Shown: positions 1,693 to 37,992, numbered from the stretch's first letter. The stretch: DNA of 40,848 nucleotides from Candidatus Hydrothermarchaeales archaeon (GCA_036446635.1 JAZFTJ010000110.1:1-40848), one strand, 5' to 3'. Notes: a model not told the origin generated them from the letters alone. A program made the numbers and translations.

Positions 1693-3504
1693 TCACCCTT
1701 CGGCTTTTTCATGAAAAAACCCAAAGACATCCTTGGCAACATTTTTTGTTATCTTCGAAACTTCTATGAGGTCTTCCAACGTGGCCTTTTTTATCTTTTC
1801 CACCGAGCCGAACCTTTCAAGGAGCAACTTTTTCCGCTTCTCCCCGACACCAGGGATATCATCCAATATCGAGCCTTCCAGTGCTTTTTTTCTCAATTTC
1901 TTATGATATGAGAGGGCAAACCTATGGGCTTCATCCCTAATCCTCTGAAGCAGTTTCAAGGCTTCAGAGTCAGAAGGCAAAACAAGCGGATCACTTCTTT
2001 CAGGCATAAAGACGTGTTCATATTCTTTGGCAATGCCGATGACAGGGACAGTGTCTTTTCCAAGCCCCTTCAGCACATCCATGGTAGCGTTGACCTGCCC
2101 TTTTCCACCGTCGACAAGTATAAGGTCTGGAAGTACATCGGCCTTGGAGTACCTTCTTAAAACAACCTCTCTTATCATCCCGACATCATCCGGGCCTTTG
2201 GTCTTTATTTTGAAGCGCCGATAGTCCTTCTTACTCGCCAACCCATCCTTGAAGACTACAAGAGAGCCCACAGCGTGTCTCCCTCCGATATTCGATATGT
2301 CAATGGCCTCAATATGTCTGGATGGGGAAGGCAGGTCCAACTCCTTCTGAAGCTCTTCGACAGCCCGGTTTTTTTCTTCTTTTATCTTCTCTTTGATAAC
2401 CTGCTGTCCAAGCTCAAACTCGGCGTTCTTCTTCGCCATCTCAAGAAGTTTTCTCTTCCCCCCTCTCTTCGGGGTTTTAATCAAAACTTTGCTCTTCCTC
2501 TTTTCTCCAAGCCATACTGAGATGGTAGTGGCGTCTTTGAGATCGTGCTGGATTATGACCTCTTTTGGAATATCATGGGTAGAGGAGTAGTACTGTCTTA
2601 AAAACGAGGAGACCACCTCATCGGTGGACGTGTTTTCAACTCCGTCTAGAAAGAAGCGCTTTCTTCCAACTATCCTCTTTTCCCGCACGAAGAACACCTG
2701 TGCACATGCAAGGTTATTTTTGACGCTGACGCCTATTATGTCTTGGTCGTGTCTTGACGACGGCACTGCTTCCCGCCCAGTATGGGTCTTTTTTATCACT
2801 TTCAATTGATCCCGTATCCTCCCTGCTCTTTCAAAGTCAAGATTAAAAGATGCCTTTTTCATCTTCTCCTCAAGGCGTCTTGCAAGATCCTTGTGATGGC
2901 CGCCTAAAAACGCGACAACCTCACCGACGAGTTCATCATACTCATGCTTTTCCACATCCTGATCGCATGGTGCAAGACACATCTTAATCTGATAGTAAAG
3001 ACAGGGCTTCGACCTTTTTCCCCCGACTTCCCGTTTGCAGCTTCGAATGGGAAAAACCCTTCTTACAAAGTCCAGGGTCTTCCTTGCCGAGCCAGCTTCA
3101 GTAAATGGGCCGAAATACCGCCCGTTATACTCTAATATCTCTCTTGTAAGCACGATCCTCGGCCATTCCTCAGACGTGATCTTAAGATAGAGCCATTTTT
3201 TGTCATCCTTTAACCTGACGTTGAATCTCGGCTTATGGATCTTAACCAGGTCCGCCTCTAGAATAAGCGCCTCTTTTTCTGATCCCGTGATGATGTAGTC
3301 AAGGTCAGAAGCCCTCTCTTTTAAAGCATCGGTCTTGGCATCCGTAGCCGCGGACATGCTAAGGTATGAGGATACACGTCGTTTAAGAGACGATGCCTTA
3401 CCTATATAGATGATCTTACCTGTCTTATCCTTTATCAGATAAACGCCGGGAGAATCGGGCGGCGGCGCAATATCGCCTCTCTCGATCAAAACATTACCCC
3501 CCAA
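1693..3504 (-). CDS. uvrC: Excinuclease ABC subunit C (UvrC)
   Basis: 603 aa. N-terminal GIY-YIG motif ([28 protein letters not shown]) and C-terminal helix-hairpin-helix ([18 protein letters not shown]). It lies 6 nt upstream of uvrB and overlaps the uvrA stop by 11 nt. Confidence 0.95.
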
Positions 3505-6313
3505 GAGATTTTTTCAGAAACATTCCAGTATAAGAATGCCCTACCCTAGATATCTCTTCTGGCGTGCCCTCAGCCACAATAAACCCTCCCAGGTCTCCGC
3601 CTTCAGGCCCCAAGTCTATGATATGATCGGCAGTCTTGATCACATCCAGGTTGTGCTCAACCACCACCACAGTGTTACCAGCATCTGTAAGCCTAGAAAG
3701 GACATCTAAAAGCTTCTGAATATCCGCGAAATGAAGACCCGTAGTGGGCTCGTCAAGAATATAAAGTGTCTTTCCAGTACTCCGCTTGCTAAGCTCCGTG
3801 GAGAGCTTAACCCGCTGGGCCTCACCACCTGAAAGGGTTGTGGCAGGTTGTCCAAGCTTGATATAACCCAAGCCAACGTCGCTTAGCGTCTGTAGCTTAT
3901 TTTTTATAACAGGTATGTCTTTGAAAAACTCAAGAGCTTCCTCAACCGTCATCTCCAGAACATCCGAGATATTCTTGCCCTTGTAACTTACCTGTAGGGT
4001 TTCCCTGCCATATCTTTTTCCTTTGCAAACCTCGCATGGCACATAAACATCCGGCAGGAAATGCATCTCTATCTTTATGATACCGTTTCCATGGCAGGCC
4101 TCGCATCTGCCGCCCTTAACATTGAAGCTGAACCTGCCAGGCTTATAGCCCCGTTTCCGGGACTCAGGTGTTTTGGCAAAAAGCTCTCTTAGGGGTGTAA
4201 AGACCCCGGTATATGTCGCGGGATTTGACCTCGGCGTCCTGCCAATAGGGGATTGATCAATCTCTATTACCTTGTCAATGTATTCAACTCCATCGATACC
4301 TTCATGGATGCCGGGCTTAATCTTCGATCGATAGAATCTTTGACAGAGAGCAGGATAAAGAGTGTCGCTGACAAGGGAGGATTTTCCCGAGCCTGATACG
4401 CCGGTGATACATGTGAAGACCTTAAGAGGGATCTTCACGTCAATGCATTTGAGGTTGTTCTGCCCAGCCCCTTTTATAGTTAAGAAGGTCCCGTTATGAC
4501 GCCTCCTCTCGGTTGGCACTGGTATAACCTTTTTATGAGAAAGATAAAGGCCTGTGAGGGATTTTTCATTCATCATAATATCCTCAGGAGTCCCGACCGC
4601 CACCAACTGGCCGCCATGATCTCCGGCGCCAGGCCCCATGTCTATAACATAGTCTGCTGCTTTGATGGTAGCCTCGTCATGTTCAACAACCAGGATGGTG
4701 TTTCCAAGATCCCTTAGTTTTAAAAGAGTTGATATCAGCCTTTCGTTGTCTCTTTGATGAAGCCCTATGCTGGGCTCATCAAGTATGTAAAGAACGCCCA
4801 CAAGCCCTGATCCAATCTGTGTTGCAAGACGGATCCTCTGTGACTCGCCTCCAGAGAGAGTCCTTGAGCCCCTGTCAAGGGTGAGATAGCCAAGACCCAC
4901 GTTGACCATGAACCCTAGCCTCTTCTTTATCTCTTTTAATATCTCAGTGGCGATGAGAGCATCGTTTTTCTTAAGCTTTATCGCTTCAAAGAATTCTAGA
5001 AGGCCTACCACAGACATCTTGGTCAACTCAGATATGGACTTACCTTCTACATTCACAGAGAGACTTAGAGGTTTTAGGCGGGCCCCATGGCAGCTGGGGC
5101 AATGGATTATCGCCACGAATCGCTCCATCTCCTCACGTCTGTACTGGGACTCGGTCTGTTTGTAAAGACGCTCAAGGTTGGGTATGACTCCCTCAAATGT
5201 CCCCTTGTAGGAATAATGTGAGGTTGCATCCCTTGATTTGAAGTGGAAGTCTATCTCGTCGTCGGTGCCGTAGAGTATGACCTCAAGATGCTCTGGTTTT
5301 AGGTCTTTTATGGGCGTATCGAGGTCGAATCCAAGGTAATCTCCAAGAGACCTCAAGGCCTGCCCCCGGTATCCCCAAATCTGTGTGCTCCACGGTGCTA
5401 TCCCACCCTCTGATATAGTCTTTCTCTTATCCGGGATTATAAGGTCGGGGTCAAACTCTGTTTTAGTACCCAGACCCTGGCAGTCGGGGCAAGCTCCATG
5501 GGGGCTGTTAAAGGAGAACATCCTCGGTGCAAGCTCTCCAAGGCTTACGCCGCAATCAGGACATGCGAACTGTTCACTGTAGTTCTTCTTCTCACCCTTG
5601 GCGGCTATGACTACAATGCCCTCTGCAAGATTTATGGCCGTTTCTATTGAGTCAGCAAGCCTATCTCTTATTTCAGGTTTTATCTTGAGCCTGTCCACAA
5701 CAACTTCTATGGTGTGTTTCACATATCTTTCAAGAACTATCTTCTCATCAAGATCCATGGTCTCCCCATCCACAACAGCCCTAACATATCCCTCTTTTTT
5801 CATCTCTTCAAAAAGCGCCTGATACTCTCCTTTTCTGTCACGCACCACAGGAGATAGGATTTGTATCTTTGTTCCTTCAGGCAGTTTCATCACTTGGTCT
5901 GTTATCTGTTGCACTGTCTGTTTCTCAATCCGCTTCCCGCAGCTGGGGCAGTGCGGCACACCGATCCTGGCATAAAGGAGTCGTAGATAGTCATAAATCT
6001 CGGTAACAGTGCCCACTGTAGACCTGGGGTTCTTGCTCCGTGTCTTCTGGTCTATAGATATCGCCGGGGAAAGACCCTCTATACTCTCTACTTTGGGTTT
6101 TTTCATAAGGCCAAGAAACTGCCGAGCATATGCAGAGAGAGACTCAACGTATCTCCTCTGTCCCTCAGAGTAAATAGTGTCAAAGGCAAGCGAGGATTTG
6201 CCTGAGCCTGAGAGGCCGGTTATCACGACGAACTTGTTTCTAGGTATTTCAAGATCTATATTCTTGAGATTATGCTCTGAAGCTCCTTTTATTATGATGG
6301 AGTCAAGGCCCAT
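3494..6313 (-). CDS. uvrA: Excinuclease ABC subunit A (UvrA)
   Basis: 939 aa. Two ABC ATPase P-loops ([18 protein letters not shown]), two LSGGE signature motifs and CxxC zinc modules (CPSCG, CPDCG, CEACHG, CEVCKG). Confidence 0.97.
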
Positions 6314-6518
6314 AGGTTATATCCTCCGACAAAGATTGGGATCATTAATGATGGATGGTTAAACTTAGAAAAAACAATTAATTTTAAGATAAAGAATCTC
6401 TTAACTACGCTTAGGATTTCAAAAGCAACCATCTTCCTACATCAGACAGTAAGATAATCTCTCTAAAAAAGGTGAATAAAAACCTGAGGGGTAGGAGTCT
6501 AGAGAAATCCATATGTTT

Positions 6519-7157
6519 CTAAAGATATCTCCTCCTTGTAACATTTGAATCATTATGCAGGAAATATTCTGTTGCACCCTCTTGATATGCCAGTTGTGAT
6601 TGAACCTCTGTATGGCAGGTAAGGCAGAAGTAGAATCCCCTGGAATAGGGGGCGCCTGTCTCGTTATAATATGTTGAGTCTATGCCGCTTAGAGCGTCGA
6701 ATACTCTTTCATGCACATTTTTGGCGCCTAAAAGCGGGCTCATATTACCCACGGCATAACGTGTGTTATTGGTTGTCGCGTTGTTTCCGTGGCAGGCAAG
6801 ATCTGTACATGCCCTGACCACAGCCTTTGTATGGGTGCTTGTGCTTGCAAGCTGTGAAAGATGGCACATCTGGCAGACACCAAATTCAGTTGAATTATCT
6901 ATTGTAAGGTTTAACCAATCCTGGGTGTACGTGGTGTCATTAGCTGCGGCCCTGTGCTTGGCATAGACTGCTCGGGAGGCTTCAGTGGCATTCAACTCAT
7001 CTAAGATGTATTCATGACATTTAGTGCATTTAAGCCCTTCAGCTCCGGCTGTGCCCACTTCCATGGTATGCGAGCCAGCGAATCTTGCTGTAAGTTCTGG
7101 CATGATGAAAAGGCCAGCAACTATAGCTAATAATAGCAATAACACTCCTGTCTTCAT
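6519..7157 (-). CDS. Small secreted or membrane-anchored multihaem c-type cytochrome (3 CxxCH plus 1 CxxxxCH)
   Basis: N-terminal hydrophobic signal/anchor (MKTGVLLLLLAIVAGLFIM). Haem motifs are CTKCH, CQMCH, CLTCH and the variant CTDLACH. There are ten N-x-S/T sequons in 212 aa. Confidence 0.8.
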   Translation of the reverse strand: MKTGVLLLLLAIVAGLFIMPELTARFAGSHTMEVGTAGAEGLKCTKCHEYILDELNATEASRAVYAKHRAAANDTTYTQDWLNLTIDNSTEFGVCQMCHLSQLASTSTHTKAVVRACTDLACHGNNATTNNTRYAVGNMSPLLGAKNVHERVFDALSGIDSTYYNETGAPYSRGFYFCLTCHTEVQSQLAYQEGATEYFLHNDSNVTRRRYL

Positions 7158-7336
7158 GGGATGTTTCCTCGGATTTATTTATAATCAAGGATTAATAAGG
7201 ACATGATACCTTTTTTGATCTGATCATATGGCTCTTCCCTAATTCTGGGGTGAACCATAAAGAAACCTGGCAACCAATACTCATTCCATTACAAGTTACT
7301 ATCTTCAGGGGAAAAAATAAATAACTTTCTATGGAT

Positions 7337-8506
7337 TTAGGGATACCGCTCTATAATAGCTGCAAACGCGTTGTAAACCTTCTCGATCTCCTCGTTGTTT
7401 AAACCATATATCGAGAGTTTTATGTGTTTGCTCAATCCCTTATGAAGCCCGACAACGCCAGCCTTAAACATGTCTTTGGCCAAGAAGAAGCCTTTTCGCT
7501 TATGATTCTTCGATATCTCCCAGAACGCAGGCGTCTCAAAGTGCAAGAGATGGTGTCTATGCGGCCTCTCCCCCAGAAGCATCATATCACAAAGGTCTTC
7601 TAGGTCATCCACAAACTTCTCCATCTTCTTGACCTCATCCGGCCAGTTCTTAACCCTCTCCTTAACATAAGGGAACGAAAAAATAGAGCTAATAATAGGC
7701 AAGCCCCCTATACTGCAGCCGAAAATGTTCGGGATCTTCTTCCCAAAGCTCCTTCCCGTCCAATCTGGCTTTTCCTGCGACGTCATGAAAGCCTTCTTAC
7801 TCCACTCATAGGTGGTAACAAGAAAACCCAACGGCCCAACAGAGGCCATGGACTTATGGGCAGAAAGAGTCAGGAAATCAGCATTCATCTCCTTCATATT
7901 AATCGGCATCACGCCACCCGTATAGGCGGCGTTTACCAAATAGGGAACTTCATATTCTTGACAAATCTTACCAATCTCTGAGACCGGAGCTACATTGCCA
8001 TAATAAGGATCGGCATGCGTAGCCATAACCAAAGCTGGCTTGCCATACTCCTTTTTAACCTCTTCTATTTTGTCAATATAGCTATTGGCACTGACCTTAT
8101 ACTCCGGATAACCGCTATGAGGCGGCTCCACAACCTTGAGATTGCACATCTCCGCCGCGATGTTCGTGGAATAATGGCTGTTGGGATCTGCTATAACTAT
8201 CCGTCCACTCTCCTCTTCCTTGATAGACTCTGATATCGTCCGCATAACAGCATATTGTGCTGACCTGCAGCCAAAGGTGTGCTCGGCAACATCGCCCCCG
8301 AAAAATTTTGCAACATCGCTAAGAAACGTCTTCACAGGCGGCTTGGTAATAAGGCTGGATCTGCCCTCAATGCAGTCAAAGCAGAGATCATAACCAACCT
8401 CCATCCAACCCTCTTCATACAGATTTTTCTGAACGTCCTTGGGGACGATCCCCCCGCGCATCAAGGGATTTATTATGATCTTGTCCTTGTACCTGTAGGG
8501 GTTCAT
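7337..8506 (-). CDS. pscS: O-phosphoseryl-tRNA(Cys):Cys-tRNA synthase (SepCysS)
   Basis: 389 aa. INPLMRGGIVP N-terminus, CFDC cysteine pair, SAHKSMAS (PLP lysine), FGCS third cysteine. The C-terminus (FFLAKDMFKAGVVGLHKGLSKHIKLSIYGLNNEEIEKVYNAFAAIIERY) closely resembles the SepCysS sequences I remember from Methanocaldococcus and Archaeoglobus. Confidence 0.82.
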   Translation of the reverse strand: MNPYRYKDKIIINPLMRGGIVPKDVQKNLYEEGWMEVGYDLCFDCIEGRSSLITKPPVKTFLSDVAKFFGGDVAEHTFGCRSAQYAVMRTISESIKEEESGRIVIADPNSHYSTNIAAEMCNLKVVEPPHSGYPEYKVSANSYIDKIEEVKKEYGKPALVMATHADPYYGNVAPVSEIGKICQEYEVPYLVNAAYTGGVMPINMKEMNADFLTLSAHKSMASVGPLGFLVTTYEWSKKAFMTSQEKPDWTGRSFGKKIPNIFGCSIGGLPIISSIFSFPYVKERVKNWPDEVKKMEKFVDDLEDLCDMMLLGERPHRHHLLHFETPAFWEISKNHKRKGFFLAKDMFKAGVVGLHKGLSKHIKLSIYGLNNEEIEKVYNAFAAIIERYP

Positions 8507-9429
8507 GCCTCCACCTTACCGACAACGTCCTCTAAAAGCTCCGCTAGGCCTTTTCCAGTGTTAAGCTCCACACCGATCTCATCAAGCCTAACCACAACAG
8601 AGACATCAGTCCACTTGCCCCTTGTAGATTTTACAAAAGGCGGCTTAACCCGGACATCGCCCTTTATTGGGAGATGAACAGTCATATAATCAAGCTTGCC
8701 CTGAAAGTCCTTGTTAAGATAGACCCTGACGTTCTTCCCGTTTATCTTTCCGAAGAAATAATCCGTGCCCTTCTCGAAATCCAGCTTCTTGAAGGTTGTG
8801 ATAATCCTTGGAGAGATGTCAGTGACTTGGCATCCGCAGAGAGCGCCACCTGTGCCGCATGCTTTATCAAGCGCCTCGGCACGCTCGTTAATATCTTTAT
8901 AGGTCTCGGGAAGCGCCCCGAAGATAACCTCGCTGTCGGCATAGCCCGCGAACATCCTGGAGCCCCGGCATAGCAGAGTAAGATTCGGCTTCTTCTCCAT
9001 AATCGGTCTTGCTGTCGCCTCGCCGCAAACAGCAAGGCTGCCTGCAAAATGGGCTTCCATGCCATTTAGAAGAGTTGCAACATCCATCCCCTGCTTGGCC
9101 GTGAGGATCATAAGAAGCACATCAGGATCGGATACATCCTCAGCAGGACCTACCATGACAGCCTTGGTCTCACCAGGCATAATCCTGGGCTGAACGTCGA
9201 CGTATACAGGCTCTTCAAAACCAAGAGTGACCTCAGCATTGGGGCAGCTGATATCCTCCTGATAGGCAACAAACGCCTTTCCTTTTCCAGCCTCCCTTAC
9301 AAGCTGACAAAACCTCATCCTCTTCTTTGGCCTTTCAAAAGGAGGTTTGGGCTCAACCTTTTCTTTGAAGATCTTAACCCCGATCACGTTGTATTTATTC
9401 CCCAGATAGGCGCGGAGTCCGTCATACAT
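8503..9429 (-). CDS. DUF169-like protein with a C-terminal extension of about 100 aa
   Basis: The pattern VIGVKIF...RMRFCQLVREAGKGKAF...SCPNAEVTLGF, then PDVLLMILTAKQ and AVCGEA...LLCRGSRMF, matches my memory of the DUF169 (COG2043) consensus. Its stop overlaps the SepCysS start as ATGA (8503-8506). Confidence 0.55.
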   Translation of the reverse strand: MYDGLRAYLGNKYNVIGVKIFKEKVEPKPPFERPKKRMRFCQLVREAGKGKAFVAYQEDISCPNAEVTLGFEEPVYVDVQPRIMPGETKAVMVGPAEDVSDPDVLLMILTAKQGMDVATLLNGMEAHFAGSLAVCGEATARPIMEKKPNLTLLCRGSRMFAGYADSEVIFGALPETYKDINERAEALDKACGTGGALCGCQVTDISPRIITTFKKLDFEKGTDYFFGKINGKNVRVYLNKDFQGKLDYMTVHLPIKGDVRVKPPFVKSTRGKWTDVSVVVRLDEIGVELNTGKGLAELLEDVVGKVEA

Positions 9430-9444
9430 GATATTATCCCTAGT

Positions 9445-9702
9445 CTATTCTTCAACCGCTGGCGCCCTTAATAGAAGTTCGTATTCGTCACCGCCAACAT
9501 TCTTGACTTCCAAGACCTCATACCCTATCTTCTCATCCCTTAGACTTCGTGGTATATTCTCAGCAGCAGGCGGATAGTCCAATAGCACCTTCAACAATCC
9601 TCCGCCCTCATATGCTAACTCCTCAAGCTTTATCTTTGTATAGACAAAAGTATCTGGGCATTTCTCTCCATGTAAATCCAAAACTTCCGCTTCTTCACTC
9701 AT
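9445..9702 (-). CDS. TusA/SirA-like sulfur carrier protein
   Basis: I use the internal ATG at 9702 (MSEEAEVLDLHGEKCPDTFVYTKIKLEEL...). LDLxGxxCP is the TusA active-site cysteine context and ~85 aa is the typical size. The longer listed ORF (to 9804) would overlap the E1 gene by 110 nt. Confidence 0.65.
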   Translation of the reverse strand: MSEEAEVLDLHGEKCPDTFVYTKIKLEELAYEGGGLLKVLLDYPPAAENIPRSLRDEKIGYEVLEVKNVGGDEYELLLRAPAVEE

Positions 9703-10501
9703 TGGATCCACTCCTGGTCTCACAGACCTCTGCAACAGGTTTCGGGACGAATTTGTCACCGCATGCGGTGCAGTCCAATCTTCTCCGCAGAGTAATTCTG
9801 TCAAAGCTGCCTATATCTATGTTGATTACTAAAAGCCTGTTCTTTAATGATATCGGAAGGCCTGCAAGATATCTTATGGCTTCCATGGTCTGGATAGAGC
9901 CCACAAGCCCGGTCATGGCCCCGATAACCCCTGCCTCGCGGCATGTTGGCACGCTCCCTGCTGGGGGCGCCTCTGGAAATGTGCATCTGAAGCATGCGGT
10001 CTCTTTCGGGATGATGCTGGTCACCCTTCCCTCATACATCAGCACTGCTCCATGAAACAGTGGGACATCGTTTACCATGCACGCATCGTTTACTGCGTAT
10101 CTTACTGGGAAGTTGTCTGTGCCATCGACTACTGCGTCATATCCTTTTAACAAGTCGAAGGCATTGTCATAGGTTATCATCTCATTTATGCCCGTGACCT
10201 CTATCTCTGGGTTTATGGCGTTTAGTTTTTTTGCCGCTACTTCAGCTTTTAGCTTGCCGTTATCCTCTGGTGTATAGAGGAATTGTCTGTTCAGATTGGT
10301 AATGTCTGCCTTGTCCATGTCGATTATATCGATCTTCCCAACTCCTGAGAGAGTCAGATATGTGGATATGGGGCATCCCAGTCCTCCTGCTCCAGTAACA
10401 GCGACCTTCGCGTTTTTAAGTTTGTTCTGCTCTCTTGCCCCGAGGTCGGGAAGGACGAGCTGTCTGCTGTATCTTTTTATCTCGTTTAAAGAGAGAGTCA
10501 T
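9695..10501 (-). CDS. ThiF/MoeB/UbaA-family E1-like adenylyltransferase
   Basis: 268 aa. RYSRQL motif, nucleotide-binding VTGAGGLGC, NLNRQ, and two CxxC pairs (CFRC, CTAC) typical of the Zn site of MoeB/ThiF. Its stop overlaps the TusA-like start by 8 nt. Confidence 0.85.
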   Translation of the reverse strand: MTLSLNEIKRYSRQLVLPDLGAREQNKLKNAKVAVTGAGGLGCPISTYLTLSGVGKIDIIDMDKADITNLNRQFLYTPEDNGKLKAEVAAKKLNAINPEIEVTGINEMITYDNAFDLLKGYDAVVDGTDNFPVRYAVNDACMVNDVPLFHGAVLMYEGRVTSIIPKETACFRCTFPEAPPAGSVPTCREAGVIGAMTGLVGSIQTMEAIRYLAGLPISLKNRLLVINIDIGSFDRITLRRRLDCTACGDKFVPKPVAEVCETRSGSNE

Positions 10502-10827
10502 TCTTTCACATCCGGTCTTATTTCATCGTCTATGGTCCAAAAACATGGGCAATAATACCATCTATAGCTTTAATTGAACATCTCCTATTATTAAGTATCT
10601 CTAAACATTACAAATATTCTTCATATTTATATTTTTTGGATAAATCTATTACCCTTGGTAATAAAAATATTTGATTTCAATAGAATCAAATCAACAGATT
10701 AAACGAACTCATCAATCGAGACTGCTACAGGTTTTTATATTTACATCACCTATTTCACCCTGTATGAAAATAAGATTTATATGGAGTTATTTTTCAAAAA
10801 TAGATGAAGAAAAATAAAAAGAGAAAA

Positions 10828-10879
10828 TAGGGTCGATTTGAAGGATTGACCCTATGATAGTGGGAGGCCACAAGCCCAC
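10828..10879 (-). terminator. Two short hairpins followed on the minus strand by a T-rich tract, just downstream of the 10893 stop
   Basis: TAGGGTC(10828-10834)/GACCCTA(10848-10854) and GTGGG(10860-10864)/CCCAC(10875-10879). The plus strand to the left is A-rich (aaaataaaaagagaaaat), which gives oligo-T on the minus strand. Confidence 0.35.
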
Positions 10880-10892
10880 TTTGATTTACATT

Positions 10893-12362
10893 TTAGATTC
10901 TGCTTCTTTTTTTCTCTTCAGTCTTGGTCTCTGACTCATCTTTTTTTTCTGTCTCTTTTGGTATCTCTGTCTCAGCGGGTTTCACGGTTTCTTCTGGCGT
11001 TTCCTCTGTTTTCTTCTCTTCGACTTTTTCTGCTTCCTCAGGTTTTTCTGTTGTCGGGGGTGCTTCTGTCTCTACAGGTTTTTCAGAGTCATCTGTTTTT
11101 TCTTCTTCAGTTTTTGTTTCTGCTTCTTCTACTTTGGTTGCTGTTGGCTCTTCTTCCTTACGTGTTTCTTCTCTCTCTGCTTCTTCCTCCTCTTCCTTTC
11201 CTATATCGATTTTTCTGGCTTTTCTCTCTGACTTATTCCCGATCTCAAAGCTCTGTTTTCCACGAAGTTCCTTTTTTTCTTTAAATTTTATAACTTTTTC
11301 AACCTCCTCCATAGTCAAACCAGTTTTACTTGCTATCTCCGATACTATCTCGCCCCTGTTTGTCGTGTCGAGACTAAATTTCATCTCGTCATCGTCTAAT
11401 TCTACCTTCACCGTACTTTGATCATTTACTATCTTTACCGTTATCTCTATTTCCTGTTCTTCTTCCTCCACCTCTTCCAAATCTTCAGTTTCTCTTTCTA
11501 TTAATCTTTTGGCGTTTTTTGCCAAATGCTCAGTAGCAGTAGCTTGACCAAAACTTGCACCGTATTCCCCTTCCGCAAAGAGTCTTTCAGCGTCTTCCAA
11601 TTTAGATTCTGCTTCACTAAGCAACTGGTCTAAACCTGGTACATCTGTGATGTTCTTTTCCGATATCTCTTCCGTTACTTCTGCTATCTCCTCTCTGGCA
11701 TCTTCTATCTGGTCTTCAGCCCGCTCTTTTCTGAACTCCGTAAGCCCTTTCTTTTTCTCTATTTCCTTGATCTCATCTTCTATCTCTACGTCGCTTTTTC
11801 CTGTTTCTATCTTGATTTTCGTCTTTGTCCTTCCTTTTTTATTATCTATCTCTATTTTGACTTTTCCTGTTTGGTTTTCTAGACTGCCTAATATAGAATC
11901 GATCATGGCTTGCTGCTCTGCGGTGACATCTCCCTTGATCTTTATCTTGACTTTTAGCTCTCCTCTAATCATTTCAATTTTGGTCCGATGTTCCTCGAGC
12001 TTCTTTTCTATCTCTATTTCGTCTTCGATCTCTTCGGTTGAGTTCGCTCTTTCTAAACCTCTAACGGCAGATGTTACCGTGCCTAGAACATTCGAGTGCT
12101 CCCTTTGAGCCCTCTGCATCGCTTCTAGTTTGTTCTCTTCTGCCATCTTTTTTACTTCTAAAAGCCTCTCTTCTGCGATCTTCAATCCCTTCTTTGCCTT
12201 GGCTCCTCTGTCAAATGTCAAAAGGAGTGATATTTGATCTAAAGCAACGTCTAATCCATACAGAAAAGAATCAGGCGTGATTCCCGCCTCCGCCTCCTCC
12301 TGCGCATATACGGGCGCCATTGTCAACATCAAGATACAAAGCACAATTGCAATACTCTTCAT
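10893..12362 (-). CDS. Secreted Glu/Lys-rich protein with a DUF5667-like N-terminal domain
   Basis: Signal peptide MKSIAIVLCILMLTMAPVYAQE. The motif ITPDSFLYGLDVALDQI resembles the DUF5667 signature. The rest is highly charged coiled-coil or low-complexity sequence with an acidic PT/E-rich tail. Confidence 0.6.
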   Translation of the reverse strand: MKSIAIVLCILMLTMAPVYAQEEAEAGITPDSFLYGLDVALDQISLLLTFDRGAKAKKGLKIAEERLLEVKKMAEENKLEAMQRAQREHSNVLGTVTSAVRGLERANSTEEIEDEIEIEKKLEEHRTKIEMIRGELKVKIKIKGDVTAEQQAMIDSILGSLENQTGKVKIEIDNKKGRTKTKIKIETGKSDVEIEDEIKEIEKKKGLTEFRKERAEDQIEDAREEIAEVTEEISEKNITDVPGLDQLLSEAESKLEDAERLFAEGEYGASFGQATATEHLAKNAKRLIERETEDLEEVEEEEQEIEITVKIVNDQSTVKVELDDDEMKFSLDTTNRGEIVSEIASKTGLTMEEVEKVIKFKEKKELRGKQSFEIGNKSERKARKIDIGKEEEEEAEREETRKEEEPTATKVEEAETKTEEEKTDDSEKPVETEAPPTTEKPEEAEKVEEKKTEETPEETVKPAETEIPKETEKKDESETKTEEKKRSRI

Positions 12363-16294: not shown

Positions 16295-16888
16295 TTATTT
16301 GACCAACACCACACGATCCATGGATAGTATATCCTCTTTATTGACAGTGGTGTTGAACTCGCCCCTTCCGACCTCGATCTCTTTTACATCGTCATCAGGA
16401 CCTAAAATTACCTCTTTCACATATCCTAAAAACTCCCCTTTCTCAGTGTAGACCTCTTTCTCTACCAAAGAATGTCTCTTAGTCCTCTCCTCTTTTACCA
16501 GAACCACATCGTCCCCTGCCAAGACATCCTCCGTTAGTACCACCTCCTCACCTTCCTCCTCATCCACAACAAAGGATTCGATGGTGCCTTCGGGAGCCTT
16601 CACTCTTTTAACACGTCCAAGGAATCTTCCAGTCTCTGTGTAGACCTCATATTCTGGGACCTTGATCAGTTTCTTCTCTATAAGAATCAGGGCAGTGCCG
16701 CTGATTATAAGGCTTATAGACGGGATCCAAAGTAGAAGAGCGACAGTCCAAACAGCGCCCCACCCAAAGGGAGGCTGGATAGAGGAAGAGAAAATGGACC
16801 TAACCAAATTGAAGAATTTTATGGGCACAAATGCAAAAGCGACTCCTAAAACTACATTGACAATGCCAATAATCCGGATAACTCTCAT
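16295..16888 (-). CDS. Membrane protein with two PRC-barrel-like repeats
   Basis: Two N-terminal TM segments, then an internal repeat: YEVYTETGRFLGRVKRVKAPEGTIESFVV and KEVYTEKGEFLGYVKEVILGPDDDVKEIEV. Confidence 0.5.
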   Translation of the reverse strand: MRVIRIIGIVNVVLGVAFAFVPIKFFNLVRSIFSSSIQPPFGWGAVWTVALLLWIPSISLIISGTALILIEKKLIKVPEYEVYTETGRFLGRVKRVKAPEGTIESFVVDEEEGEEVVLTEDVLAGDDVVLVKEERTKRHSLVEKEVYTEKGEFLGYVKEVILGPDDDVKEIEVGRGEFNTTVNKEDILSMDRVVLVK

Positions 16889-16935
16889 ATCTATCGTATT
16901 GGACTGTGTCCTCGTTGGTATAAAAATTTAACCGA

Positions 16936-17802
16936 TTAGGCAATGCTCATCTTCTCAAGTCTTGCCACTCTCTCGGGTGTTGGTGGATGTGTGCTGAACA
17001 ACTTCTTCATCATTCCGCTTTTTAGGGGATTTACGATAAACATGTGAGCGGTTGATGGATTTGCGTCCATAGGAATTGCGACTGCGCCGCGTTCCAGTTT
17101 CTGAAGGGCAGTAGCAAGATGGTGAGGGTTTCCGCATATCTTTGCACCGGCCTCATCGGCCACATACTCTCTGGACCTGGAGATTGCGAGTTGGACTATC
17201 ATTGCGGCTATGGGGGCCAATATGGCCAGCGCTAAGAAGGTAATAATATTCGAACCACCGCTATCCCTATCTCCTCCGAAACCGCCAAAGATAGCTGCCC
17301 ACCTTGCCCACATTGCGAGCATTGTTATCACACCGGCTATAGTCGCTGCTATTGCACTTATAAGGGTGTCTCTGTTTTTGACATGTGCCAGCTCATGGCC
17401 GAGAACGCCTTCTAACTCCTCCTTTGTCAATAACCTGAGGATGCCTGTAGTGGCTGCTACTGCTGCGTGTTCAGGGTCTCTTCCGGTGGCAAAGGCGTTT
17501 GGGGAGTTGTCGTTTACGATGTAGACCTTTGGCTTTGGAATATCCGCTCTTGTGGCAAGGTTCTCCACGATCTCATGTAGCTCAGGTGCCTCTGAAGGCG
17601 ACACCTCCCTTGCCTTGTACATCTTCAAGACGATGGTGTCGCTGTACCAGTAGCTTCCGAAGTTCATGATTATTGCAAAGAAGAACGCCAGTATCATGCC
17701 GCTGGTTCCTCCCATAATCTGACCAACCAAGACTAAAATCCCTGTCAACATTCCAAGGAGCAGGGTTGTCTTCAGCATCTTCATAGTATCACCTCGCGTC
17801 AA
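16936..17802 (-). CDS. htpX: Zinc metalloprotease HtpX (M48)
   Basis: [10 protein letters not shown] (HExxH), four TM segments and typical HtpX architecture. Confidence 0.9.
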
Positions 17803-18190
17803 CTTCTTTATAATAAGGTTTGATATCTAAAATGGGTGTACCGTCAATGACATCAAGATATTTTACCTCTAGAGTATTCCCATTGATCTTTAAATTTTTA
17901 ACGTAAGAAATCCCAATTGGATTAGGCCTTCGGGGGCTTCGTGTGGTGAATATGTCTCTATTTTTGAGTTTTGACCAGAGCTGGGTTCTGTCTGACTGGT
18001 GCATCCAGTAGAGCACTATCAGATAATCATATTTCTTGATGCCCTCAAGGGCCTTGGTGTATTTGTCGAAGATTATGATCTTGGATGTCTTTTCGCTTTC
18101 AAAACCCTGCATCGGAGCGTTTTCTAAGCTGTATTCTGATCTGATAACTCCGATAGGTGTGAGTTTAAAAGAATTCCTCGCTCCAGTCAA
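17789..18190 (-). CDS. TsaA/TrmO-family tRNA (m6t6A37) methyltransferase-like protein
   Basis: [20 protein letters not shown] and [10 protein letters not shown] are the UPF0066/TsaA signatures. Confidence 0.8.
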
Positions 18191-18677
18191 ACTTTCCGGG
18201 TCTGAATTCGTCTGTTTTACCCCCTAAGATCTTGGTTATTGCTGTGGCTGTTTCTTCAGGGCTTTTTTCTGTTGTGTTTATTTCATATACCTCTCTATGG
18301 TTTTCCAAGGCCTCTATTAGACATACATCCAGTGCCTCTGCCTCAAGGTTTTCTTGGATCTTATCTTTTCCAAAGCCTCTTTCTTTCAATCTGCCTCTTA
18401 GTTCCTCTGGGTGTGTTCTTAGGACTATCACGATGTCTCCGAAGGGAAGTAGATGTGATAGATGCCCTTCTATGATTGTGTCCCCTTTTATCATATCCTG
18501 TAATTTATCCTGGAGTAGTTTCATATCCACTATATTGCTTCCTCTCTCTTCGTCCACCCCTGTATATATGCCTTCAAGGTCATTTATGGAGATAAGCTCT
18601 TTGTTGATCTTTTTCGAGAGAGATCTGACAGTGGAGGATTTCCCTGTCCCCGGGGTCCCTGTTATGAGGATTATCAT
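18165..18677 (-). CDS. Fap7/AK6-type adenylate kinase (ribosome maturation NTPase)
   Basis: MIILITGTPGTGKSS P-loop at the extreme N-terminus, and ~170 aa, typical of archaeal Fap7. Confidence 0.8.
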   Translation of the reverse strand: MIILITGTPGTGKSSTVRSLSKKINKELISINDLEGIYTGVDEERGSNIVDMKLLQDKLQDMIKGDTIIEGHLSHLLPFGDIVIVLRTHPEELRGRLKERGFGKDKIQENLEAEALDVCLIEALENHREVYEINTTEKSPEETATAITKILGGKTDEFRPGKFDWSEEFF

Positions 18678-19261: not shown

Positions 19262-19307
19262 GGCTTTTATGCCCCTTGGGCCGATGTAGTATACTGTTAT
19301 TATGTAA

Positions 19308-35076: not shown

Positions 35077-36321
35077 GTGAGTTTTGTCAGCGGCTTAAAA
35101 TGCAGGAACTGCGGAAAGGAATATGAAGAAGGGCCCACCAGCATCTGCGAGGAATGTTTCGGCCCCTTGGAAGTCGTCTATGACTTTGAGGCTATCAAAA
35201 ACGTCACAACCAAAAAGAGTATAGCCTCAGGTCCGAAAGACATCTGGAGATATAAGAACCTTCTTCCTGTAAATGAGAATGTCATAAACATGTGCACAGG
35301 CTTTACACCACTACATAAAGCTGACAATCTCGCCGAGAAGCTTGGGCTAAAAGAGCTATATGTGAAAAACGATTCAGTCAACCCCACGTTCTCATTCAAA
35401 GACCGGGTTGTCTCTGTAGCAGTCTCTAAAGCAGTGGAGTTCGGATTTGACACTGTAGGATGCGCATCCACGGGCAATCTGGCAAACTCGGTAGCAGCCC
35501 ATGCCGCAAAGGCTAAACTTAACTGCTACATCCTCATCCCCCATGATCTGAACATAGGCAAAATCATACCAACCCTTGCATACGGACCGCATCTGGTAGG
35601 GGTTGAGGGCAATTATGATACGGTCAACAGGCTCTGTGCAGAAGTGGCCGGCTATTACAACTGGGCTTTTGTGAATATAAACCTAAGACCATATTACTCC
35701 GAGGGCTCGAAGACATTGGGCTATGAAGTTTCAGAGCAGCTCGGATGGGAAACCCCTGATAGAGCGATAGTGCCGGTTGGCTCTGGATCACTTTTAACAA
35801 AGATATGGAAGGGCTTTAACGAGATTCAGAGGCTTGGTTTTATTGACGAGGTCAATACAAAGATGACCGCGGCCCAGGCACAGGGATGCTCGCCTGTTAT
35901 TGAAGGATTTAAGACAGGGGAGATAAGGCCTATTAAGCCCAACACCATAGAGAAGAGCTTGGCGATTGGAAATCCTGCGGATGGAGATTACGCTATAAAG
36001 GTGCTGAAGGAGTCAGGTGGGAGCGCGGGCTCTGTAACTGATGAGGAGCTTATAGATGGGATATTGCTTCTGGCGAGGACCGAAGGCATCTTCACAGAGA
36101 CTGCGGGGGGGGTTGTAGTGGCAACCCTGAAGAAGCTTGTTGAGGAAGGGGAGATAGATACGGATGAGAGGACGGTTATCTATATAACCGGGAATGGTCT
36201 TAAAACTCAGGAAGTTCTGGTGGATTATCTCCCGAAGATTGTTACTATAAAACCCGACTTGAATGCTTTTAATGAGCACTTTAAGACGTTGGGGTCGGAG
36301 AAGATTAAGATACAGATATAG
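35077..36321 (+). CDS. thrC: Threonine synthase family PLP enzyme with an N-terminal zinc ribbon
   Basis: CRNCGKEY...CEECFGPLEVVYD N-terminal ribbon, FSFKDR (PLP lysine), ASTGN and GSGS motifs. 414 aa, GTG start. Confidence 0.82.
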   Translation: MSFVSGLKCRNCGKEYEEGPTSICEECFGPLEVVYDFEAIKNVTTKKSIASGPKDIWRYKNLLPVNENVINMCTGFTPLHKADNLAEKLGLKELYVKNDSVNPTFSFKDRVVSVAVSKAVEFGFDTVGCASTGNLANSVAAHAAKAKLNCYILIPHDLNIGKIIPTLAYGPHLVGVEGNYDTVNRLCAEVAGYYNWAFVNINLRPYYSEGSKTLGYEVSEQLGWETPDRAIVPVGSGSLLTKIWKGFNEIQRLGFIDEVNTKMTAAQAQGCSPVIEGFKTGEIRPIKPNTIEKSLAIGNPADGDYAIKVLKESGGSAGSVTDEELIDGILLLARTEGIFTETAGGVVVATLKKLVEEGEIDTDERTVIYITGNGLKTQEVLVDYLPKIVTIKPDLNAFNEHFKTLGSEKIKIQI

Positions 36322-36339
36322 ATTAGGAGGCAGAGATGT

Positions 36340-36609
36340 ATGGCTATAGTTAGATTATCAACACCACTTAGGAGGTTTACCGGGGGCAAACCAGAGGTAG
36401 AGACAGAGGGGTCTACGTTAAATGAGGCTCTTTTGGATCTTGAGAAAAAATATCCGGGAATATCTGAAAAGATTCTGGATGGGAACGAGATTCAGAGGTT
36501 TGTTAACATATATGTGAGTAATGAGGATGTGCGCTTGGGCGAGGGCTTGGAGACCAAGCTTGGCGAAAAGGATATAATATCTATATTGCCGGCTGTTTCT
36601 GGTGGATAG
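36340..36609 (+). CDS. MoaD/ThiS-family ubiquitin-like sulfur carrier (SAMP-like), C-terminal Gly-Gly
   Basis: 89 aa ending ILPAVSGG. FVNIYVSNEDVR is typical of the MoaD family. AGGAGG lies upstream, 18 nt after the thrC stop. Confidence 0.75.
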   Translation: MAIVRLSTPLRRFTGGKPEVETEGSTLNEALLDLEKKYPGISEKILDGNEIQRFVNIYVSNEDVRLGEGLETKLGEKDIISILPAVSGG

Positions 36610-36661: not shown

Positions 36662-37492
36662 ATGGATGTTGGCGATGGTATTTCAGAAGCAGATGTTTCA
36701 AGAGCGATTATCGAGGGATTTACAAAGGATCTTTTAGAGTTCACAAGTACCGATGTCATAATTGTCGGCTCAGGGCCTGCGGGGATGACAGCGGCCAAGT
36801 TCTTGGCAGATGAGGGTGTTAAAACACTGATTATTGAGAGGAACATATATGCTGGTGGGGGTTTCTGGCAGGGCGGGTATCTCTTTCCTAAGACAGTTGT
36901 TGAAGCACCGGCAGACGAGCTTTTTGAGGATCTTGGTATCGAGATGGATGAAGTAAAACCCGGGCTTTTCATTGCCGACTCTTTTAAGATAGTTTCTAAG
37001 CTCTTGGCTTGTACTGCTGACTCAGGTGCAAAATTGCTGAACAGCACATATGTCGATGATGTCATTTATAAAAACGGGAGGGTGAGTGGCGTTGTTGTGA
37101 ACTGGTTCCCCATTACCCAAATGCCTAAATTCATTACCTGTATGGATCCGATAGCTCTTGAAGCCAAGGTGGTTATTGATGCTACAGGGCATGAGGCGAA
37201 TATTGCCACGCGGGTGAAGGAGATTCTTGATCTTGAGAAATTCGATGCTAAGATCGAGAGGCGCCATGGCGCCATGGACGTGCCTAAAGCTGAGCAGGCA
37301 GTGGTTGAGCATACGGAGGAGATTTATCCTGGACTCGTCATCTGTGGCATGGCGGTTGCTAATGTTTACAGAACTCCGAGAATGGGTCCGATCTTTGGTG
37401 GCATGCTGCTTTCAGGTAAAAAGGCGGCTGAGTTGACCTTGGAGATCTTGAAGGACATCAAGCCTGTTTCTGTGAATAAGACTGAGGATTAG
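36662..37492 (+). CDS. thi4: Thiazole synthase Thi4 (archaeal type)
   Basis: DVIIVGSGPAGMTAAKFLADEGVKTLIIERNIYAGGGFWQGGYLFPK, IDATGHEA and PRMGPIFGGMLLSGKKAA are Thi4 signatures. Confidence 0.9.
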   Translation: MDVGDGISEADVSRAIIEGFTKDLLEFTSTDVIIVGSGPAGMTAAKFLADEGVKTLIIERNIYAGGGFWQGGYLFPKTVVEAPADELFEDLGIEMDEVKPGLFIADSFKIVSKLLACTADSGAKLLNSTYVDDVIYKNGRVSGVVVNWFPITQMPKFITCMDPIALEAKVVIDATGHEANIATRVKEILDLEKFDAKIERRHGAMDVPKAEQAVVEHTEEIYPGLVICGMAVANVYRTPRMGPIFGGMLLSGKKAAELTLEILKDIKPVSVNKTED

Positions 37493-37500: not shown

Positions 37501-37992
37501 ATGGTAATTGTCTACGGCAATCCTATTAAGAATTGGAAGTGCATCTTTAAGGAGTGCAAAGCCCTCTGCTGTCATGCGGCAAGAGAGGCTACGGGCAGAG
37601 ACCTTAAGAGGATATCTGAGGGAATGGGGTTAAAGCCTGAAGAATTTGCAGACCTAGATGAGAAGAGGGGGCTCTTTACACTTAAGGGCAAGGATGGAAG
37701 ATGCATTTTTGTCCAGGACGATTTTGGTTGTCAGCTGCATGCTAAAGGCATCAAGCCGATTCTATGCCAGATGTATCCTTTCAGGTTTGATGGTTTGATC
37801 TATTCAGATGATATCCTTTTGAAGATCAAGGTAAGGGAGGCTTGTCTAGGACTGGGTACTGGTAAAGACTTGGATGAGGATTTTGAGATCAGGATAGAGG
37901 AGTTGGGAAACAAGTTTGTTAAAGACATCAGGGATTATCTGAGGCTGAAGGCTGAGGGAAAAAGTTTTGACGAGATCCTAAAAGAGCTTTAA
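37501..37992 (+). CDS. YkgJ-like cysteine-cluster (putative Fe/Zn-chelating) protein
   Basis: N-terminal CIFKECKALCC cluster plus later Cys residues (CIFV, CQLH, CQMYPF). ~160 aa. The family call is tentative. Confidence 0.5.
   Translation: MVIVYGNPIKNWKCIFKECKALCCHAAREATGRDLKRISEGMGLKPEEFADLDEKRGLFTLKGKDGRCIFVQDDFGCQLHAKGIKPILCQMYPFRFDGLIYSDDILLKIKVREACLGLGTGKDLDEDFEIRIEELGNKFVKDIRDYLRLKAEGKSFDEILKEL

Follow-up and report, generated by a model that had tools for sequence, protein, structure and literature searches.

A stretch of 40,848 nt from a Candidatus Hydrothermarchaeales archaeon (GCA_036446635.1 JAZFTJ010000110.1:1-40848; the whole 40.8-kb stretch is referred to here as the window) carries, side by side, genes for an E1-like adenylyltransferase, a TusA/SirA-like sulfur carrier, a DUF169-family protein that we call DUF169x, and SepCysS, the Sep-tRNA:Cys-tRNA synthase. 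We found that these four genes make up a genuine operon, translationally coupled and presumably transcribed as a single unit, in a Hydrothermarchaeales (MBG-E) archaeon, and that DUF169x genes are almost always found close to a SepCysS gene. Judging from gene content and order, the 3′ half of the operon, DUF169x-SepCysS, is a conserved two-gene module, and E1-TusA, which makes up the 5′ half, represents a thiocarboxylate system's activating end. On balance, we favor the view that the operon supplies activated sulfur to tRNA-dependent cysteine synthesis, from a module of E1, TusA, and SAMP (a ubiquitin-like sulfur carrier encoded elsewhere in the window) by way of DUF169x to SepCysS. From where SepCysS draws its sulfur in vivo is not known to have been settled since the discovery of the pathway in 2005, and cysteine desulfurases cannot be the primary source of sulfur in organisms whose cysteine is made on tRNA only. 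DUF169x, with the adjoining TusA, E1, and SAMP, narrows the donor question to a short list of testable proteins.

Structure of the Operon

The four genes lie in the same orientation (Table 1) and are closely packed. The E1 stop codon TGA (9697-9695) and the TusA ATG (9702-9700) fall within an 8-nt overlap that reads ATGAGTGA on the coding strand; the TusA stop codon and the DUF169x ATG are 15 nt apart, with actagggataatatc between them; and the DUF169x stop and SepCysS start share the ATGA at 8506-8503, within GCATGAAC. The TusA start at 9702 is backed by gene calls of 81-85 aa at L179, L185, and L186 (L-numbers denote loci compared in this analysis, and P-numbers denote representative library matches), and identical gene calls are recorded on an identical public contig (GCA_044232495.1 JAZHBU015368192.1). 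The closest named relatives of the window are Candidatus Hydrothermarchaeales metagenome-assembled genomes (MAGs). The genes and their junctions, together with the gap 5′ of E1 and the T-rich run past SepCysS, fit one transcription unit, for which the 5′ gap would provide the promoter. The original prediction, made from the window alone, had described four co-directional genes with this overlap, gap, and ATGA and had assigned them to the ThiF, TusA, DUF169, and SepCysS families; our reading of the strand bears out the former, and profile searches agree with the latter.

Conservation of the Pair Across Phyla

We scanned one genome per species, along with several metagenome contigs, and obtained 46 distinct DUF169x homologs, of which 44 had enough flanking DNA to be informative. 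In 42 of the 44, DUF169x was located no more than 400 nt from SepCysS, on the same strand in 41 cases, with the two genes usually overlapping or 0-90 nt apart. A small open reading frame (ORF) stands between them at L003, and only at L016 was there no SepCysS within 8 kb. The named records belong to Hydrothermarchaeota, Altiarchaeota, Bathyarchaeia/Hecatella, Promethearchaeota, Hadarchaeota, Caldisericum, Nitrospirae, and unclassified bacteria. The linkage predicted for the window is thus not unique to its genome, but recurs in several phyla and exceeds what chance would give. TusA was found within 1.5 kb of DUF169x in at least 28 of the 46 loci and E1 within 3 kb in at least 28 of 46; these neighbor counts come from tblastn (E <= 1e-5) in flanks of 6-10 kb and, as TusA is small and evolves fast, are lower bounds in its case. 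With few peptide patterns used, the DUF169x and SepCysS scans are samples rather than censuses, and because MAG contigs are short, a gene that is not found nearby may still be present in the genome.

When the linkage was viewed from the other side, DUF169x was directly upstream in 31 of 54 SepCysS genes of the window type (approximately 55-89% identity, with upstream DNA available). In a SepCysS type that is 42-43% identical to that of the window, DUF169x was directly downstream in three of three cases. Two loci of this type (L089 and L090, approximately 43% identity) have the order E1-TusA-SepCysS-DUF169x, and in the Hadarchaeota locus E1 and TusA are encoded on the other strand. For 35 adjacent DUF169x-SepCysS pairs, the two distance matrices were correlated at r = 0.72, a value reached in 0 of 2000 permutations, which shows co-inheritance and is, alone, no proof of interaction.

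Exceptions to the full gene order are informative as to which genes belong together. Three Hydrothermarchaeota-type assemblies have SAMP-E1-TusA-DUF169x and SepCysS on separate contigs (L016/L051, L014/L049, and L006/L039), although the contig ends 233 nt after DUF169x in L014 and 79 nt after it in L006, so that separation from SepCysS is not certain there. In Bathyarchaeia, DUF169x-SepCysS is kept without E1, and DUF169x-SepCysS pairs often have no E1 or TusA nearby. Because SAMP-E1-TusA-DUF169x can lie on a contig apart from SepCysS and the Bathyarchaeia pair occurs without E1, DUF169x is the element common to both halves. These arrangements suggest that the SepCysS-specific partner is DUF169x and not E1.

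Identity of the Linked SepCysS

The SepCysS of the window scored 396.3 bits against PRK09331 (cut-off 301) and aligned over its full length to the solved enzymes of M. jannaschii (3WKR/5X6B; E 5e-85, residues 8-386), including the C-terminal region, and A. fulgidus (2E7I; E 1e-80, residues 6-388). The Cys pair C42 and C45, the pyridoxal phosphate (PLP) lysine K218, and the third Cys, C264, are invariant in an alignment that includes the M. jannaschii enzyme and are kept in 86-90 of 88-90 tblastn matches, in keeping with the earlier judgment that this SepCysS is genuine. It bears an 8-residue insertion, as has been reported for SepCysS clades II-VII (Mukai 2017).

The SepCysS type linked to the operon occurs together with SepRS. 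The operon DUF169x-SepCysS-MJ0307-type thioredoxin-like-SepRS is present on a contig from Nitrospirae (L075/L099) and on a metagenome contig related to it (L183), and in it SepRS is fused to an N-terminal tRNA-Thr editing domain (approximately 150 aa, PF08915; 9436-11352 in L075 and 10415-12319 in L183). One SepRS/tRNA-Thr editing fusion of this kind has been mentioned before (Mukai 2017). A Prok-JAB gene follows SepRS in L183. Elsewhere, SepRS and DUF169x-SepCysS were found in the same assembly (JBHLPL01, MTLY02, CAYFTS01, and DRDE01), and the assemblies concerned include one Asgard and one Bathyarchaeia MAG as well as Hecatella JdFR-11; in another Asgard MAG (JBHLPJ01), SepRS accompanies SepCysS and a mini-gene for the C-terminal domain of DUF169x, described below. 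The presence of SepRS in Hydrothermarchaeota is taken from a report of SepRS in MBG-E from Juan de Fuca crustal fluids (Mukai 2017), since the best 80 of 524 genomic SepRS loci in our search included none from this group. No SepCysS was found in complete genomes lacking SepRS (Mukai 2017). Because the linked SepCysS shares one operon with SepRS in the Nitrospirae and related metagenome contigs, it appears to be the canonical enzyme.

The DUF169x Subfamily

The third protein of the operon matched PF02596 (DUF169, COG2043) at 108.8 bits against a cut-off of 27, in agreement with the family predicted for it, and the match covers residues 5-179 only. Four cysteines within this region (C41, C62, C135, and C154) are matched by Cys even where the DUF169 proteins compared are only remotely related. 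It is followed by an L-C198-G-C200 loop, in which C198, G199, and C200 are invariant in 99 sequences, and by a DUF169x-specific C-terminal alpha/beta domain of about 100 aa (approximately residues 205-308; DYFFG...YLNKD...R.W.D). A profile search of 1.8 billion representatives yielded 869 DUF169 clusters at E <= 1e-3 and 53 at E <= 1e-30. Full-length DUF169x matches are 300-370 aa long, while the next-closest group (P0253-P0289, E 1e-33 to 1e-62) consists of DUF169 proteins of about 200 aa that have neither the CGC loop nor the C-terminal domain. On these sequence features DUF169x, as defined in this analysis, is a distinct DUF169 subfamily. The C-terminal domain also occurs by itself: in a Promethearchaeota MAG (L071, 787-1041) an 84-aa homolog of the last ~75 DUF169x residues stands directly 5′ of SepCysS, a Bathyarchaeia MAG has a truncated remnant of the domain (L056, about 7650-7950), and stand-alone versions were found among the representatives (P0274, P0288, and P0300).

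An AlphaFold2 model built from the 99 sequences had a mean predicted local distance difference test score (pLDDT) of 90.8 and a predicted template modeling score (pTM) of 0.64, the latter fitting an arrangement of two domains. Only loop 193-202, which bears the CGC motif, drops below a pLDDT of 50 and is presumably mobile. A core of four cysteines beside an invariant CGC in a low-confidence loop fits a sulfur or redox role for DUF169x. Searches of PDB sequences with phmmer and hmmsearch gave no related solved structure below E 0.1, and with Foldseek the PDB yielded no more than a weak, partial resemblance to type III secretion chaperones (template modeling score 0.51 on the target, approximately 110 residues), which we regard as uninformative.

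We also asked whether the C-terminal domain could be a form of SepCysE or SepCysSn. This candidate was rejected, as hhalign of the domain profile against a SepCysE profile gave a probability of 0.3% (E 0.18); tblastn with MjSepCysE likewise had no match in the window or the compared loci.

E1, TusA, and a Detached Set of Genes

The E1 matched PF00899 (ThiF) at 262 bits over residues 11-244. Its best NCBIfam matches were MoeB and the SAMP-activating E1 UbaA, all under their equivalog cut-offs, and the ThiF equivalog was likewise not reached; at 243.5 bits against a cut-off of 450 for the UbaA equivalog NF047750, it may work in a UbaA-like way, but the equivalog name is not justified. The GAGGLG loop, both CxxC pairs (170/173 and 244/247), and the crossover-loop C187 are conserved in 30 of 30 orthologous matches. 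No rhodanese domain was found in the E1, the MoeZ and MoeB-rhodanese models matching its E1 part only, below their cut-offs; because its 268 aa are essentially the ThiF domain alone, it has no rhodanese of the MoeZ/Uba4 type. The TusA-like protein scored 54 bits against PF01206 (cut-off 28.6), and its Cys15-Pro16 is kept in 31 of 31 matches. The glycine loop and zinc-type CxxC pairs of the E1 and the active-site Cys of TusA, all noted in the original prediction, are thus conserved.

The same prediction had pointed to a carrier ending in Gly-Gly far from the operon as the match for its E1. This SAMP/ThiS/MoaD-like protein does match the ThiS family and its C-terminal GG is kept in 20 of 20 matches, while its score against the SAMP1 equivalog NF041918 (53.6 bits, cut-off 60) falls short of that name. 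In most Hydrothermarchaeota relatives (L005/L179, L009, L008, L048, and others) its orthologs lie two genes 5′ of E1. Gene order therein suggests that the distant SAMP is the cognate ubiquitin-like protein of the operon's E1. Indeed, most of these relatives have a contiguous cluster on one strand, with the order ThrC-like PALP-SAMP-(Thi4 in some)-CxxCxxCC-E1-TusA-DUF169x-SepCysS and many stop/start overlaps, as exemplified by Ca. Hydrothermarchaeum profundi JdFR-18 (L179). In the window, the first four genes of this cluster are at 35077-37992 on the plus strand, approximately 26 kb from the operon. The two closest relatives, L001 and L186, have the same split arrangement, with the E1-TusA-DUF169x-SepCysS core unbroken. 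The genes on the SAMP side are, by this comparison, apparently the detached half of an ancestral cluster.

Among these genes, the ThrC-like enzyme is a candidate homocysteine synthase of the MetM type that would use the SAMP thiocarboxylate, by analogy with the MetO/MoeZ/MetM route, in which O-phosphohomoserine and the thiocarboxylate of a carrier yield homocysteine; threonine synthase is a frequent misannotation of MetM (GapMind 2026 preprint). The Thi4 gene has an equivalent position in L002, L019, and L038. The 163-aa protein of the window had no Pfam match at E <= 1e-3, whereas its JdFR-18 ortholog carries PF03692 (CxxCxxCC); each of its eight cysteines is kept in 16-17 of 17 matches, and in the relatives its gene lies directly 5′ of E1. 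No SepRS, CysRS, tRNA-Cys, or further sulfur-related gene was found in the remainder of the 40.8-kb window.

Sulfur and Redox Genes at Other Loci

A small thioredoxin-like gene directly follows SepCysS at L075, L182, L183, and L184; a gene of this kind comes after the DUF169x-SepCysS pair in Bathyarchaeia-type metagenome contigs and in Nitrospirae-type operons. A disulfide/persulfide cycle was reportedly described for SepCysS by Liu and colleagues in 2012, and the thioredoxin-like neighbors fit such a cycle or, equally, a reductive step at an Fe-S site. L180 has the order PALP-ThiS-ThiF-TusA-ThiI-?-thioredoxin-DUF169x-SepCysS, the question mark standing for a gene without assignment. In L184, the region 5′ of DUF169x-SepCysS-thioredoxin-like (4286-7943) encodes a Cons_hypoth698 membrane protein, a sulfite/nitrite reductase (assimilatory-type NIR_SIR, 510 aa), TusA, and a 202-aa polytopic membrane protein, with DsrE and a stand-alone tRNA-Thr_ED gene a few kb off. 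At both L184 and L020, TusA accompanies DUF169x-SepCysS without E1. L057 has a divergent TusA-like ORF (5027-5395; ...CIGLHCPEP...) directly 5′ of SepCysS with no DUF169x nearby; this ORF was missed by tblastn with the TusA of the window.

JAB peptidase genes occur at L181, L182, and L183. At L181 (GCA_012974985.1, JABAOH010004537.1), JAB and a TusA-ThiS:ThiF fusion-PALP set are divergent from SepCysS-DUF169x, and the same contig carries, at 16543-21020, a second SepCysS-like gene (404 aa) flanked by DsrE, ThiF, ThiS, ApbE-like, NIL-ferredoxin, and a 505-aa gene. The ApbE-like and NIL-ferredoxin families are what we take to be the methanogen sulfide/homocysteine factors of the work of Rauch and Perona. 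From its gene content, this second locus appears to be an independent linkage of a SepCysS-like gene with E1 and ubiquitin-like genes.

Proposed Sulfur Route and Alternative Explanations

Sulfur-assimilation operons that combine ThiS/MoaD with a rhodanese-less E1 always contain SirA/TusA, which has been predicted to replace the rhodanese (Iyer, Burroughs and Aravind 2006). Because of these operons and of the MetO/MoeZ/MetM route, we read E1, TusA, SAMP, and the ThrC-like enzyme as a thiocarboxylate system of the homocysteine type. In the route that we propose, sulfide-derived sulfur would be held as a persulfide on Cys15 of TusA, and E1 would adenylate the C-terminal Gly-Gly of SAMP; TusA, taking the place of the rhodanese domain that E1 lacks, would convert the adenylate to SAMP-thiocarboxylate (SAMP-COSH). 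The thiocarboxylate could pass its sulfur to the ThrC-like enzyme for homocysteine synthesis, in the manner of MetM/MetO. Sulfur from the TusA persulfide or from SAMP-COSH would also reach DUF169x, whose Cys-Gly-Cys loop, beside the four-Cys core, would contact SepCysS and load its three-Cys site (C42, C45, and C264), and SepCysS would then exchange the phosphate of Sep-tRNA(Cys) for the delivered sulfur to give Cys-tRNA(Cys). A stronger form of this proposal, which we put forward only tentatively, is that DUF169x and SepCysS together are a two-protein Cys-tRNA synthase, DUF169x being a new type of sulfurtransferase that delivers TusA-persulfide or SAMP-thiocarboxylate sulfur.

Several observations weigh against this route. 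The SepCysS of the window passes the TIGR02539 equivalog by only 2 bits (367.4 against a cut-off of 365.25). DUF169x was adjacent to none of the 13 SepCysS genes below 40% identity, nearly all of which belong to SepRS-SepCysS operons found in Dehalococcoidia, Parcubacteria, and DPANN, and the sampled methanogen SepRS loci had no DUF169x nearby; of 524 genomic SepRS loci, the best 80 included a single one, on the Nitrospirae contig, with DUF169x within 6 kb. Since DUF169x is missing near the Dehalococcoidia, DPANN, and sampled methanogen loci, it cannot be a universal requirement of SepCysS, and the link is confined to particular SepCysS clades. Reviews also call SepCysS an Fe-S protein (citing Liu 2016), and a persulfide hand-off may therefore be the wrong chemistry. 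Finally, the work of E1, SAMP, and TusA may be limited to the ThrC-like enzyme, to molybdopterin synthesis, and to tRNA thiolation, and the present evidence does not tell a direct relay from a set of co-regulated neighbors.

In light of these points, two parts of the original prediction need to be narrowed. It had proposed a sulfur relay dedicated to tRNA-dependent cysteine synthesis: the DUF169x-SepCysS pairing is indeed conserved, while "dedicated" is not shown for E1, TusA, and SAMP, which are more likely a shared module. Because in relatives these three make up one contiguous stretch together with a ThrC-like PLP enzyme, they probably form a common sulfur-activating module that also serves a MetM/MetO-like homocysteine route. 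Similarly, the predicted co-occurrence with SepCysS holds when counted from DUF169x (42 of 44) but is limited to certain clades when counted from SepCysS (31 of 54 genes of the window type and 0 of 13 below 40% identity).

The arrangement could also be a sulfur-amino-acid supra-operon without direct relay, in which the thiocarboxylate is made only for the ThrC-like homocysteine synthase, and perhaps for molybdenum cofactor synthesis or tRNA thiolation, and the co-regulated DUF169x-SepCysS uses free sulfide. We regard this as a serious alternative, if a rather unlikely one. The gene order in relatives agrees with it, as do the thiocarboxylate route of MetM/MetO/MoeZ, which is established in the literature, the many DUF169x-SepCysS pairs without E1, TusA, or SAMP nearby, and the fact that the window tolerates its SAMP and ThrC-like genes apart from E1. 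Moreover, SepCysS is reported to work with sulfide in vitro, a finding attributed to Hauenstein and Perona in 2008. However, a supra-operon of this type leaves less reason for the E1-TusA-DUF169x-SepCysS core to stay tightly coupled, with its 8-nt and 4-nt overlaps, after the rearrangement seen in the window, L001, and L186, or for E1 and TusA to precede SepCysS-DUF169x again in L089 and L090 with a SepCysS type only 43% identical. TusA alone accompanying DUF169x-SepCysS (L184 and L020), the TusA-like ORF 5′ of SepCysS in L057, and the second, independent linkage of SepCysS-like, ThiF, and ThiS genes in L181 likewise speak against a supra-operon without a relay.

A still less probable explanation is that DUF169x is a scaffold or assembly factor, either an analog of SepCysE/SepCysSn that channels Sep-tRNA or an Fe-S carrier or maturase for the three-Cys cluster of SepCysS. 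DUF169x occupies the coupled slot directly 5′ of SepCysS, as SepCysSn does in other lineages (Mukai 2017), and DUF169 genes are "occasionally" found in SepRS clusters (Mukai 2022). The stand-alone C-terminal mini-genes 5′ of SepCysS suggest a docking module, the four family-wide cysteines would suit a metal or cluster site, and the description of SepCysS as an Fe-S protein points the same way. Nevertheless, the C-terminal domain bears no detectable resemblance to the SepCysE profile, and an invariant CGC in a mobile loop, together with TusA, thioredoxin-like, DsrE, and sulfite-reductase neighbors, points to sulfur or redox chemistry. A role in scaffolding or maturation and a role as sulfur donor are not mutually exclusive and could be combined in DUF169x.

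It is very improbable that the linked genes represent a tRNA-independent SepCysS clade that joins free O-phosphoserine to the SAMP thiocarboxylate in the manner of CysM, a JAMM protease then freeing cysteine. ThiS, ThiF, and sometimes JAB genes do recur near SepCysS (L181, L182, and L183), the TIGR02539 cut-off is barely passed, and the CysO/MoeZ/CysM chemistry uses O-phosphoserine. Against this stand the full-length alignment to solved SepCysS, C-terminal region included, the operon shared with SepRS in L075 and L183 and the SepRS genes in the same assemblies, and the lack of a JAB gene in the window cluster, whose SAMP already ends in GG; SepCysS is also absent from the complete genomes that lack SepRS (Mukai 2017). 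Adjacency by chance or hitch-hiking is hardly credible: genes inherited or transferred together would show synteny and mirror-tree correlation even without interaction, yet the 42 of 44 adjacencies span archaeal and bacterial phyla despite differing flanks, in at least three gene arrangements (DUF169x upstream, downstream, and in one case divergent), with start/stop overlaps retained.

Comparison With Known Systems

The sulfur route that we favor resembles several known systems in part. In the CysO-MoeZ-CysM-Mec system of M. tuberculosis, an E1 likewise adenylates a GG carrier, a PLP enzyme replaces the phosphate of phosphoserine to yield cysteine, and the genes are clustered. Here, however, the phosphoserine is bound to tRNA and the PLP enzyme that acts on it is SepCysS, of fold type I; the E1 lacks a rhodanese and overlaps a TusA gene, DUF169x is interposed, and there is no JAMM protease in the cluster; that a thiocarboxylate reaches SepCysS is, by this analogy, a proposal. 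Closer to the 5′ part of the cluster are the thiocarboxylate systems for homocysteine or sulfur assimilation, namely HcyS/HcyF/HcyD/MetY of Wolinella, MetO/MoeZ/Mec/MetM of Streptomyces, and the "type 4e" operons (Iyer, Burroughs and Aravind 2006). The cluster of the relatives shares with them a ThrC-like PALP, a ThiS-like carrier, a rhodanese-less E1, and SirA/TusA, whereas they have neither SepCysS nor DUF169, and the archaeal cluster adds the 8-Cys CxxCxxCC protein.

The transsulfursome of class I methanogens (SepRS-SepCysE-SepCysS) and SepCysSn also have an accessory gene coupled directly 5′ of SepCysS, with a small stand-alone version in some lineages, but DUF169x differs in its 300-350 aa, its six conserved cysteines, and its lack of detectable SepCysE homology. 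SepCysE is, to our knowledge, a helical adaptor with no known sulfur role. In the relay IscS-TusA-TusBCD-TusE-MnmA of E. coli, the TusA-DsrE proteins of sulfur oxidizers, and the transfer from TtuB-COSH to [4Fe-4S]-TtuA, a Cys-Pro carrier or ubiquitin-like thiocarboxylate feeds a Cys-rich or Fe-S enzyme acting on tRNA, as we propose here; our acceptor, unlike theirs, is a PLP enzyme that makes the aminoacyl moiety and not a nucleoside-thiolating PP-loop ATPase. A cysteine desulfurase would not be the sulfur source in the present case because cysteine is the product. The COG1900 protein MA1821, the NIL-ferredoxin MA1822, and the ApbE-like MA1715 reportedly co-occur with SepCysS and act in sulfide-based synthesis of cysteine and homocysteine, according to work attributed to Rauch and Perona. 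Like DUF169x, these are auxiliary sulfide-assimilation proteins found through their association with SepRS/SepCysS, and homologs lie beside the second SepCysS-like gene in L181. They belong to other protein families, however, and none is present in the window, while DUF169x is physically adjacent to SepCysS rather than co-occurring with it at the genome level only.

Each component family is thus already known, as are E1/ubiquitin-like/TusA systems that feed PLP enzymes (CysO/CysM, HcyS/MetY, and MetO/MetM). What is new is the physical coupling of such a system to a tRNA-dependent enzyme, the near-obligatory pairing of DUF169x with SepCysS across phyla, and the anatomy of DUF169x. In the searchable literature, which leaves out most subscription journals, we found no paper that brings SepCysS and TusA together and no description of the DUF169x-SepCysS pairing, the nearest being the word "occasionally" quoted above. 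The titles and abstracts of papers since 2021 that mention SepCysS gave no sign of a donor protein for it, and the supplements of Mukai 2017 have no mention of DUF169, ThiF, MoeB, SirA, or TusA. If the favored route is correct, DUF169, with its ~870 or more representative clusters, would gain its first function, and the path by which sulfide enters cysteine and homocysteine in deep-branching archaea would be traced. In its stronger form, the route would be the tRNA-dependent equivalent of the thiocarboxylate route of CysO/CysM, with sulfide and not cysteine as its starting point, in many uncultured archaea and some bacteria. It might also point to accessory factors needed for efficient SepRS/SepCysS in engineered genetic-code systems.

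Other Features of the Window

Table 1. Features of the operon and of the detached gene set, with positions counted from the first nucleotide of the window.
Feature	Coordinates	Strand	Basis
E1-like adenylyltransferase (ThiF/MoeB/UbaA type), 268 aa	9695..10501	-	ORF and PF00899
TusA/SirA-like sulfur carrier, 85 aa from ATG at 9702	9445..9702	-	ORF and PF01206
DUF169x protein, 308 aa	8503..9429	-	ORF and PF02596
SepCysS (Sep-tRNA:Cys-tRNA synthase), 389 aa	7337..8506	-	ORF and TIGR02539/PRK09331
A+T-rich intergenic region 5′ of E1, 391 nt; presumed promoter region	10502..10892	-	Read directly; no ORF with homology
T-rich run TTATTTATTTTTT, 13 nt past SepCysS stop; likely archaeal oligo-T terminator	7312..7324	-	Read directly
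ThrC-like fold-type II PLP enzyme, 414 aa, N-terminal zinc ribbon, directly 5′ of SAMP	35077..36321	+	PF00291, 236 bits; TIGR00260 thrC, 304 bits
SAMP/ThiS/MoaD-like sulfur carrier, 89 aa, C-terminus ...AVSGG	36340..36609	+	PF02597, 52.9 bits
Thi4-family thiazole synthase, 276 aa, between SAMP and CxxCxxCC genes	36662..37492	+	PF01946, 240.6 bits
CxxCxxCC (YkgJ-like) type protein, 163 aa, eight conserved Cys	37501..37992	+	PF03692 in ortholog

The genes that flank the operon are on the same strand. Directly 3′ of SepCysS, 6519-7157 encodes a secreted protein of 212 aa with three CxxCH motifs (CTKCH, CQMCH, and CLTCH), one CxxxxCH (CTDLACH), approximately 10 N-glycosylation sequons, and a weak match to Cytochrome_C7 (25.4 bits). 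An ortholog with 52-62% identity also follows SepCysS in L036/L186, L037, and L084, and by its motifs the protein looks like a small multiheme cytochrome of a Hydrothermarchaeales archaeon. Further along, 1693-6313 holds UvrC-like (603 aa) and UvrA (939 aa) genes with an 11-nt overlap, part of a bacterial-type UvrABC excision repair system. On the upstream side, the presumed promoter region of the operon adjoins a gene (10893-12362) for a secreted 489-aa protein whose N-terminal domain is DUF5667 and whose long low-complexity tail is rich in Glu/Lys and highly charged. A tandem pair of tRNA-Gln genes, with anticodons TTG and CTG and 47 nt between them, is located at 20193-20389, again on the minus strand.

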